This document shows positions 1 through 3,000 of a stretch of 36,978 nt of DNA, piece by piece. Origin of the DNA: a virus. Its lineage: Duplodnaviria > Heunggongvirae > Uroviricota > Caudoviricetes. The stretch spans positions 1 through 36,978 of IMG/VR virus record IMGVR_UViG_2565956727_000003. One strand, given 5' to 3'. Numbering within the stretch: the stretch's first letter is position 1; every line of letters begins with the position of its first letter. A program made the position numbers.

Positions 1-3000
1 ATGGATATTACTGAGTTTCCTTCTGGAGTAATTGAACACCTTGGCTGGTATGTATACCGATTGATTGATCCTAGGGACGGAAGCACCTTCTATGTAGGGA
101 AAGGCAAAGGTAACCGCGTATTTGCCCATATGCGCGGTGAAGTGGCAGCGGCTGATGATGACGAGTTACTGAGCAACAAGCTAAAGCAAATCAGAGAAAT
201 AAGATTAGCGGGACTTGAAGTTATCCATGTCATCCATCGACATGGAATGACTGATGAAAAGACGGCGTACGAAGTTGAAGCAGCACTTATTGATGCCTAC
301 CCTGGGTTAACGAATATCATGAATGGTGCTGGCAGCAATGAATTCGGCGCCGCGCATGTCAAAGAATTGATAGCAACATATCAACCCGAAACCATAACAT
401 TTCATCATAAAGCATTAATGATTTCCGTTAACAGAAGTGCAAAGGATTCAGAGCTTTATGATGCGGTTCGATTTAGCTGGCGCATCAATGCCTCGCGCGC
501 CAGTCAAGCAGAAGTCATTCTTGCCACTGTAAGGGGCATCGTTCGAGGGGTTTTTATTGCTGATAAATGGCTCAAATCAACACGTGAAAATTTCCCTACG
601 ATGAAATACTGGGACGAGGATCCTGACTTTGAGGCAACACAAAGTTCTCGCTATGGTTTTGAAGGTCGAGAAGCCCCACCTGAAATAGCAAATCTTTATC
701 TTGGGAAAAAAATACCAGATGAATTAAGAAAAAAAGGAGCTATGTCCCCGGTCCGTTACTCACCTAATTTTTGAGTATTCAATTGATAAGATTAAACCGC
801 AGCACGTTATTGCATACAACGTGTCTGCGTTTTCAACTCCGCCGCCCCCCCAATCATGATTGGACAGCACTTGCAAAAAAAAGAAATTAGTATTCTCAGC
901 AGGACACCGGTCAGATAGTGCGGCAGATCAATGTCTGGTGAATATTGATGACCGCTGCCCGCTGATTCTATTGCCGAAACTGTGCGGGAAAAGATGTGGC
1001 AAGATATTGTTGGTAAAAAATTCTCAGTGACTTTATGCCAGCAAATCAGTTTGCCTGGCATCCAGTATCGTGTGCGGTGGATAATGTCAAAAAACATGGG
1101 GAGTCGATTAAACAGGTATAATCGTTAAAAACCTTCAAACTCCAGGCAAAACCCTATTTCATAGAACATGTACTTTCATCTGGTATACATGAACGAATTA
1201 TGACTGCGTTAGTAAAATTACCCTGGTTAAATTACAGGCAGAGATATATGTTCCAGTCCAGTGCTTTTTCGTTTACAATATTTATCTTTCATTATCACTT
1301 GACTTTATTAAAAGAGGTTCGTTGTGACGAATGTTTTTGGGAAGAGAATATATACCCTGGATGTTCTGAGAGGATTTGCCGCACTTTCCGTTGTGTTATG
1401 GCATTGGCAACATTTTTTTATGAAAAAGAATGCTGCATCTGACATAATCATAAACCGCCAACCTTTTTATGAATTTTTTTCCGTCTTTTATCATTACGGT
1501 TTATATGCTGTCGAATTGTTTTTTATGATTTCTGGATTCATATTTTTTTATCTATACGCTGACAATATACACAGCAATAAAACCTCAGCAAAAACTTTTA
1601 TAGTTAACCGTGTCAGTAGATTATATCCACTTTATATATTTACATTTGCTGTCGTGGCAATATTGCAAATTATTTTCTTTAAAAGTCATAATTATTTTTT
1701 TGTTTATCCTATGAATGACATTTACCATGCCATTCTGAATTTATTGATGATTCAATCATGGGGATTTGAGCGAGGTTGGTCCTTCAACGCCCCGACATGG
1801 TCCGTGTCGATTGAAGTACTTATGTACATGATATTTTTTATATTATGCAAGTTCACATCAAAAACAACATTCATATCAATTTTAATAGTTGCATTATCGT
1901 ACTACTTTTTCAAAATTAACAATCCCATAATGATCGGCGCATTCTCTTTCTTTATTGGTGGTCTGACCTATAAAATTACGATTGCGGCCATAAAAAATAT
2001 TAGCGCAAAGTTATTTTTTATTTTTGCTTGTGTTTTTCTATTGATCTCATGGGGAGTTATCTTTACCCTGCAAGTAGCAGATATATTCTCAATTATCTTA
2101 TTCGGATTTACCTCCATAATTTTTTTCCTTGTATCAATTAGCGCAATACGAAACGATTTTGGGAAAAAAATTGAATGGTTGGGTGATATCAGTTATTCAT
2201 CTTATCTTTTACATTTTCCTTTGCAAATCATTGTTGTTTATTTAGCTGACAAGATTGGCTATGGACGCGATCTTTTTTACAGCCCCAAGGTATTCATTTT
2301 ATTCATGCTTACATTAATGGCAATTAGCTATATGTCATATATATTCATTGAAAAACCATCGCAACAATTCATCCGAGATAAATTTCATTAAGTAAAGTCA
2401 CTTTGCAATGATTAGAGTCAACAACTATTACTTTGACTCTAATCACACTGCAGTTTATCCGTATGCTCTATATTCATAAAAATCGACATCAATATATAGA
2501 ATGGAAATAAACGAAACCGCGTCACATCCTCAATATAGAAGCGTTCAAAGCCTTGCAAACCATTGCGAGGCTTTATGTGTCACAGTTTTATCCTACTTTT
2601 ATTACACAAAAAGAATTGAGTTACAATTAAACCGCTTCTCCTCAACAGATTTTATTCAGCGAAGCACGGTTCATCCGGCCACTCAATATCCGGTGCAATG
2701 CTGGTATCTGTTGCCGTCACAGCCTCGATATAATCCAGCACAACGTTAAGTCGGGTAGTTTCTTCTTGCGTCAGTTTGCGCCCGGCCTGCAGCTTTAACT
2801 GAATCACGCTGATATTGGCCATTGCTGCGTCTATCAGCGACTGTTTTTTCTGTTCAGCGTCAGCTACCAGTTCATCATGAGAACGTTCCGGAGGGAGCGG
2901 CGCAGTAAATACCCCGTCTGAATATGCCCAGCCGATTCCGGGCTGCTCACTGATATCAGAAATATTAATGAGCTGCAGATTATCCGGCACAGTGAATTCA

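Follow-up and report, generated by a model that had tools for sequence, protein, structure and literature searches.

The first gene of a 36,978-nucleotide stretch of viral DNA (Duplodnaviria; Heunggongvirae; Uroviricota; Caudoviricetes; IMG/VR record IMGVR_UViG_2565956727_000003, positions 1 to 36,978), referred to throughout as the window, almost certainly encodes a functional allele of CMoRE (PD-T4-3), a type IV restriction endonuclease directed against DNA that contains 5-hydroxymethylcytosine (5hmC). PD-T4-3 was first recovered in an Escherichia coli pangenome selection (Vassallo et al. 2022; PMC9519451) and was renamed CMoRE by Liu et al. 2026, whose study provides both its mechanism and crystal structures (PMC12923530). 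By its sequence, the gene at window positions 1-774 is a member of this already known family, with every defining feature that a sequence can reveal. The mechanism is likewise known already; the family was found in 2022, is included in PADLOC and DefenseFinder, and has had its structures published in 2026. The assignment has little discovery value and is useful as annotation. The RefSeq product name is still 'hypothetical protein' or 'LEM-3-like GIY-YIG domain-containing protein'.

The gene is an uninterrupted open reading frame (ORF) of 257 codons on the + strand, with its ATG at position 1 and TGA at 772-774. The PADLOC PD-T4-3 model PDLC04031 matches protein residues 1-256 on profile positions 1-255 of 256 (E=3.3e-140), and PHROG 5356 gives a full-length match (E=1.3e-142). 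Full-length hidden Markov model matches at E values near 1e-140 put the observation beyond chance. Sequence searches of the PDB recover the O157:H7 PD-T4-3 structures 9U75 and 9U8D, titled '5hmC specific restriction endonuclease', over residues 1-257 (E=3.7e-172), followed by 9U7U and 9U7Z from APEC O1 (E=3.9e-150). The window and O157:H7 proteins are identical at 253 of 257 positions (98.4%), the four substitutions in the direction window to O157:H7 being E55D, A164V, Q169K and N197H, whereas 39 positions differ from the APEC O1 enzyme in 9U7U (84.8% identity). At the nucleotide level, 17 of the 21 differences from the EDL933 allele are synonymous, and the gene is therefore under purifying selection rather than a relic. 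Together with the enzymes of O157:H7, APEC O1 and ECOR68, the window protein forms one family of uniform length in which the GIYxY-YIG motif, acidic loop, interface residues and sensor domain recur in a prophage-borne single gene. The features of the window gene are as follows.

1-774, + strand: CMoRE/PD-T4-3 gene, an intact ORF with PADLOC, PHROG and PDB sequence matches.
1-348, + strand: GIY-YIG nuclease domain, from PF22945 at residues 28-110, invariant residues and orthologue mutants.
43-57, + strand: GWYVY, within the nuclease domain.
91-99, + strand: YVG, within the nuclease domain.
115-117, + strand: R39, within the nuclease domain.
277-279, + strand: E93, within the nuclease domain.
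313-315, + strand: N105, within the nuclease domain.
154-165, + strand: run of acidic residues D52-D53-D54-E55 in the loop inserted between alpha2 and alpha3, a putative autoinhibitory 'safety catch', from the sequence and the orthologue 4-Ala mutant.
373-771, + strand: predicted C-terminal modified-cytosine sensing domain, approximately residues 125-257, including Y127 (379-381).

The N-terminus reads G15-W16-Y17-V18-Y19, then F30-Y31-V32-G33-K34-G35 and R39, and so contains the three tyrosines (Y17, Y19 and Y31) that distinguish GIYxY-YIG. Pfam LEM-3_GIY-YIG (PF22945) matches residues 28-110 at E=2.4e-14 and with a bit score of 54 where the cut-off is 27; the generic GIY-YIG model PF01541 stays below its Pfam cut-off, and no NCBIfam model matches the protein. 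An earlier note on this DNA had described a 257-residue ORF with an N-terminal GIY-YIG core, and the ORF call and PF22945 agree with it, the Pfam search that it proposed having detected the fold in the N-terminal half. The GIY-x(11)-YVG spacing given there holds exactly when Y19 is taken as the GIY tyrosine, with 11 residues between Y19 and Y31, and the structure-based alignment of Liu et al. equates Y19 with that tyrosine (PMC12923530). The same note had called the C-terminal ~160 residues unrecognised. This holds for Pfam, as the C-terminal half is covered by no Pfam or NCBIfam model; the region is closer to 135-140 residues, however, and crystal structures with bound 5hm-dCTP exist for it (9U75, 9U8D, 9U7U, 9U7Z). 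The AT bias noted for the gene is also real: its G+C content (GC) is 43.8%, with 36% at third codon positions (GC3), compared with 50.2% for the whole window and 54.8% for the head and tail genes at 2652-21000.

Residues of published functional importance (Y17, Y19, Y31, D52-E55, R80, V92, L96 and Y127) are all present in the window protein. An alignment of 37 diverse family members, down to 39% identity, shows Y17, Y19, Y31, R39, H43, E93, N105 and Y127 to be invariant. From this invariance, R39 and E93 are probably the catalytic Arg and Glu that the structural study leaves unnumbered (PMC12923530). Four consecutive acidic residues, D52-D53-D54-E55, lie between alpha2 and alpha3, and the tetramer interface residues R80, V92 and L96 are present in the sequence. 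The two-domain layout, with separate sensor and nuclease, is that of type IV enzymes. Consistent with this class, the window neighbours are an acyltransferase and tail genes, with no cognate protective methyltransferase. The system is also a single component: no partner gene is conserved, and each context has neighbours of its own (an acyltransferase, pinE, a tail-fibre assembly gene, AraC or a type II restriction-modification system).

The properties of the characterised orthologue are known in detail, and the results in this paragraph are from PMC12923530 unless another source is given. The orthologue lowers the efficiency of plating of T2, T4 and T6 by ~10^5-fold, and cells that carry it survive at a multiplicity of infection (MOI) above 1, which indicates direct defence without abortive infection. 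At 8 min post infection, host sequencing reads are unchanged while T4 reads collapse. With Mg2+ or Mn2+, the purified enzyme binds and degrades only DNA containing 5hmC or its glucosylated form (5ghmC), not cytosine or 5-methylcytosine (5mC), and T4(C) escapes the system whereas T4(hmC) does not. Two modified cytosines are required for cleavage, which occurs at CN11/N9G and leaves 3' overhangs of 2 nt. The enzyme is a tetramer, arranged as a dimer of dimers, and either V92S/L96S or deletion of the beta1-beta2 loop abolishes defence; activity is also lost in mutants of Y17, Y19 or Y31, none of these tyrosines being dispensable. The active site is covered by a 15-residue loop in which four acidic residues occur in a row, and conversion of these four to Ala leads to cleavage of unmodified DNA and to toxicity. 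The acidic loop is found in most, not all, family members. In the C-terminal domain, 5hm-dCTP is hydrogen-bonded to the Y127 main chain, and the 5hmC sits at the edge of the CMoRE domain and not in a pocket. In the clinical isolate NILS69, PD-T4-3 deletion sensitises the strain to two phages, and K-12 supplied with the cloned gene is protected from four Tevenvirinae (10.1101/2024.12.20.629700). A Capnocytophaga homologue, 48% identical, degrades T4 DNA, not T4-GT7 DNA, and also degrades Mom-modified Mu DNA (PMC12366544).

An equivalent mechanism is proposed for the window allele. The C-terminal domain would bind 5hmC or glucosyl-hmC, not C or 5mC, in incoming phage DNA, and a head-to-tail dimer within the tetramer would read two modified cytosines ~21 bp apart. 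The GIYxY-YIG domains at the N-terminus, using Mg2+ or Mn2+, would then cut between the modified cytosines at CN11/N9G to give 2-nt 3' overhangs, and the acidic D52-E55 loop over the active site would repel weakly bound unmodified host DNA. The phage DNA would be degraded in minutes and the cell would survive, giving direct immunity instead of abortive infection. Both 5hmC/5ghmC-dependent cleavage and protection against T-even phages are thus to be expected of this allele. A lysogen would be predictable as resistant to T-even-type (hmC) phages, a property relevant to host-range prediction for phage therapy.

Several points weigh against a functional assignment. The function of the window allele is read from near-identity to the orthologue. 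One of the four substitutions places E55 in the autoinhibitory loop where the O157:H7 enzyme has D55, although the change is conservative and the residue is that of APEC O1. The APEC O1 allele itself, under its native promoter, gives weak defence only (PMC12923530). Window position 1 is the ATG of the nuclease gene, and the promoter therefore lies outside the window. In the conserved 200-270 nt upstream, no consensus sigma-70 promoter passed the scan, and no obvious Shine-Dalgarno sequence precedes the ATG by eye, so that expression from the prophage is itself inferred. A candidate weak promoter, TTGTGA-17-TAATAT, can be picked out by eye at L001 11940-11968.

The earlier note had left two options for the gene, a free-standing homing endonuclease of the Seg type or a defence nuclease, and it is the latter that PADLOC, the PDB and the literature bear out. 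A GIY-YIG homing enzyme related to Seg or I-TevI would cut a specific sequence in genomes without it and so spread its own gene, and the catalytic core, a weak match to PHROG 314 'homing endonuclease' (E=0.0022), the 'putative homing nuclease' annotation of jumbo-phage homologues and the patchy, cassette-like distribution with a flanking repeat can all be cited for it. Those annotations in phage records are name-only, however, and the protein contains no NUMOD, zinc-finger or helix-turn-helix module (Pfam, E<=1); its C-terminal half is instead the 5hmC-binding domain of 9U75. The orthologue spares unmodified DNA and has no strict sequence need beyond two modified cytosines. Furthermore, the gene always occupies variable DNA, flanked by tail-fibre genes on one side and by att or other cargo on the other, and is not found in or between conserved target genes. 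With a modified-base sensor, 5hmC-only cleavage in the orthologue and a variable location at the prophage end, a homing function is highly improbable.

The restriction assignment also has to be weighed against two other roles for a GIY-YIG nuclease. Many single-gene prophage nucleases act by abortive infection, degrading host and phage DNA after infection is sensed, and the toxic acidic-loop 4A mutant of the orthologue, which cuts ordinary DNA, shows a potential for self-damage. Such a role is nonetheless very hard to reconcile with the normal growth of orthologue-bearing cells at MOI>1 and with host reads that hold steady at 8 min as those of T4 collapse, and the restraining acidic loop, D52-D53-D54-E55, is intact in the window protein. 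A host housekeeping or repair nuclease (UvrC-, Slx1- or LEM-3-like) that merely flanks the prophage might be suspected from the LEM-3-like name of the best Pfam model and from UvrC being the closest structural relative of the CMoRE nuclease domain (PMC12923530). Only 15% of complete E. coli genomes carry the gene, however, and it has a low GC, lies inside the att repeats of a prophage and occupies a chromosomal locus that varies with the strain (proL, ssrA and near thrW). By the earlier note, a conserved housekeeping gene of the host beside the prophage would have told against its reading; the gene is not seen at a single conserved locus shared by essentially all E. coli, and a host role is accordingly next to inconceivable.

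The window comprises a prophage from the nuclease gene to an integrase gene at 35794-36978. Strain LD91-1 carries a prophage that is 99% identical, with a nuclease gene 100% identical to that of the window, and its PGAP annotation gives the element lambdoid genes for regulation and lysis, a head of the HK97 type and, with ymfQ and stfP homologues, a contractile tail of the Mu/e14 type. By k-mer comparison, the LD91-1 prophage is bracketed by a 57-nt att direct repeat (L005 1669-1725 and 41751-41807). The 3' part of tRNA-Pro, next to yejM, falls within one copy, and past the integrase there is one more gene before the second copy is reached; the position of the nuclease gene between the two places it inside the prophage. 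The order yejM, tRNA-Pro, a DinI-like pseudogene and then the nuclease gene is seen in both LD91-1 and ET791. Given the att repeats and the DinI-like pseudogene beyond it, the window is slightly shorter than the element at both ends. In LD91-1 the element extends ~1.5 kb past the integrase end of the window, adding one gene for a hypothetical protein of 289 residues (L005 2162-3031). The gene map and att repeats support the placement given in the earlier note, at the prophage end, beside the acyltransferase and on the strand opposite to the tail genes. Megablast of window 1-2500 against the phage collection gave no match, and the prophage is absent from deposited phage genomes; scanning the window for tRNA genes and Rfam families likewise gave no match.

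Across 5,426 complete E. coli genomes, the nuclease gene is present in 838, at a median of one copy and rarely on plasmids. The window arrangement with the acyltransferase occurs in only 41 genomes, whereas the gene adjoins the tail-fibre invertase gene pinE in at least 168 and a lambdoid tail-fibre assembly gene in at least 127. The setting varies accordingly: a proL-integrated e14/SfV-like myovirus, beside the acyltransferase, in the window; a decayed prophage near thrW, beside pinE, in EDL933; and a prophage at ssrA in ST131, where the gene adjoins a tail-fibre assembly gene and a type II restriction-modification system. Conversely, the YZ3E2001 prophage (L007), 97% identical over most of the window, is without the nuclease cassette and carries at the same end pinE, a small ORF, IS3 and a DUF4365 gene. 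The gene's presence or absence in syntenic prophages, a comparison that the earlier note had proposed, thus marks it as accessory, and the suggested cargo position holds, with a cassette common to unrelated prophages and missing from a near-identical backbone. The tail-fibre-distal end is a variable slot for defence genes and other cargo.

Among four prophage contexts, identity of 95-97% is confined to a segment that runs from ~200-270 nt upstream of the ATG through window 833-835. The nuclease gene is, then, a low-GC, moron-like cassette of ~1.05 kb with its own upstream region, exchanged between unrelated prophages. Two features lie at its 3' edge.

798-835, + strand: hairpin with a 9-10 bp stem, one bulge and a 9-11 nt loop, followed by GTTTTC (RNA fold).
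833-925, + strand: apparent relic of the 3' end of ssrA (transfer-messenger RNA, tmRNA) with the adjoining att-proximal arm of an ssrA-integrated prophage (alignment).

The hairpin marks the 3' limit of cassette homology in three other prophage contexts and may be a weak intrinsic terminator; the RNA fold of the whole stretch is modest (z=-1.8), and the hairpin did not pass the terminator scan of the cassette. It is contained in a 45-nt direct repeat that brackets the cassette (window 798-842 and L001 11776-11820, the latter ~220 nt before the ATG). The two copies are identical at 34 of 45 positions and score 22, and none of 5000 controls, shuffled or natural, scored above 15. It is at these two elements that homology between the different prophage contexts ends. 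These repeats could be terminators, recombination sites or both. Immediately beyond, window 833-925 aligns to the ST131 ssrA prophage (L003 4640-4765) at 72-78% identity, and no tRNA, tmRNA or Rfam match is found there. At its 5' junction in EDL933 (L002 7770-7830), the cassette abuts what reads, by the serU sequence, as a reverse-complement tRNA-Ser(CGA)-like fragment. A permissive Rfam scan around the cassette gave sub-threshold noise only, and these tRNA- and tmRNA-like flanks are therefore regarded as relics and not genes; they look like the remains of earlier integration (att) sites.

The position of the cassette has a close parallel in e14 of E. coli K-12 (L006, NC_000913.3 1206913-1211179, compared with window 1-4582), where mcrA follows ymfQ-stfP-tfaP-tfaE-stfE-pinE and precedes attR. 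Like the window gene, McrA (EcoKMcrA) is the last gene between the tail-fibre/pin module and att of a related backbone (ymfQ-stfP-tfa), in the same slot, which therefore holds interchangeable modification-dependent nucleases. Unlike CMoRE, McrA is an HNH nuclease with an unrelated N-terminal sensor that reads 5mC and 5hmC, and the two have no sequence similarity. The small addition that context makes to the published picture is that the slot beyond the e14-like tail-fibre genes is a hot spot for alternative type IV enzymes, McrA in K-12 and CMoRE here. In its mode of action CMoRE resembles PvuRts1I and AbaSI, which also act on 5hmC and glucosyl-5hmC, not C, have separate sensor and nuclease domains, and cut at a fixed distance between two modified cytosines ~20-22 bp apart to leave short 3' overhangs. 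Their PD-(D/E)XK nuclease and SRA-like sensor are, however, unrelated to the domains of CMoRE. With the GIY-YIG type II enzymes (Eco29kI, Cfr42I, Hpy188I) and homing endonucleases (I-TevI, Seg), CMoRE has only the catalytic fold in common. Those enzymes read unmodified sequence via the catalytic domain or a separate DNA-binding module and are without the extra tyrosine (GIYxY), acidic lid and modified-base sensor. In a search of PDB sequences with the CMoRE family profile, Eco29kI was the sole other sequence touched, at a non-significant E=0.36.

The C-terminal sensor was published as 'a distinct protein fold' without structural homologues (PMC12923530), and the family profile gave no link from this domain to any other solved protein among PDB sequences. 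Structure comparison shows a PUA-like resemblance that is weak and does not reach the usual threshold for a shared fold (YTH, EVE, ASCH and McrB N-terminal domains); among the EVE matches are VcaM4I, an EVE-HNH type IV enzyme, and THYN1 in complex with 5mC DNA. The sensor may therefore be a strongly diverged PUA-like (EVE/YTH/ASCH) reader, a weak proposal that is functionally coherent and differs in emphasis from the published view. In type IV enzymes with PUA-superfamily sensors, such as VcaM4I (6YEX; PMC7897488, PMC6765204), a modified-base reader is likewise fused to a nuclease; the nuclease of VcaM4I is HNH and not GIY-YIG, and CMoRE, unlike these enzymes, holds 5hmC at the domain edge and not in a pocket. 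If the relationship is real, CMoRE would be the GIY-YIG branch of a large class of type IV enzymes that combine a PUA sensor with a nuclease. The joint proposition, that the sensor is a diverged PUA-like reader and that the cassette moves by recombination at its repeats rather than by random illegitimate events, is tentative and somewhat doubtful.

Full-length homologues, at 39-46% identity, are found in lytic jumbo phages (Serratia Moabite-like, Pseudomonas OBP and Klebsiella N1M2), two of which are located as follows.

L008 3001-3765: Serratia phage Moabite homologue.
L009 2992-3753: Pseudomonas phage OBP homologue.

These proteins keep Y17, Y19, Y31, R39, E93, N105 and Y127, and the acidic autoinhibitory loop is absent. 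Instead of acting as the homing nucleases of their annotation, they may serve against co-infecting hmC phages.

Other genes of the window include further candidate cargo.

1324-2391, + strand: Acyl_transf_3/phage O-acetyltransferase-family gene, 355 aa, GC 31.9%, after a 549-nt spacer from the nuclease gene.
3068-3994, - strand: tail-fibre gene, an intact 308-aa ORF with an StfP-like N-terminus and a C-terminal Gly_rich_2 domain (PF21722).
21249-21797, + strand: 182-aa protein of PHROG 5483, part of a two-gene module.
21876-22436, + strand: 186-aa ClpP-like serine protease, the second gene of the module.
23877-24662, - strand: 261-aa ORF of PHROG 5322, in an island of 35-37% GC.

The nearest relative of the acyltransferase in the phage collection is 38% identical, and its substrate may be the O-antigen or another surface glycan. 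RefSeq splits the identical tail-fibre region of ET791 and LD91-1 into an 'StfP pseudogene' and a 'glycine-rich domain protein'. When nine further proteins of the window, all candidate cargo, were run through PADLOC, the only defence match was a marginal one to KilA-N/PDC-S22. The module at 21249-22436 has no PADLOC match; it has a GC of 39-45% and lies on the strand opposite to its neighbours, between the lysis and HNH/terminase genes, in a prophage that already has an HK97-type prohead protease besides the ClpP-like one. The ORF at 23877-24662, with no Pfam or PADLOC match, sits between a Q-like antiterminator gene (24865-25617) and the holin gene, an interval that is a classic late-promoter cargo position in lambdoid phages.

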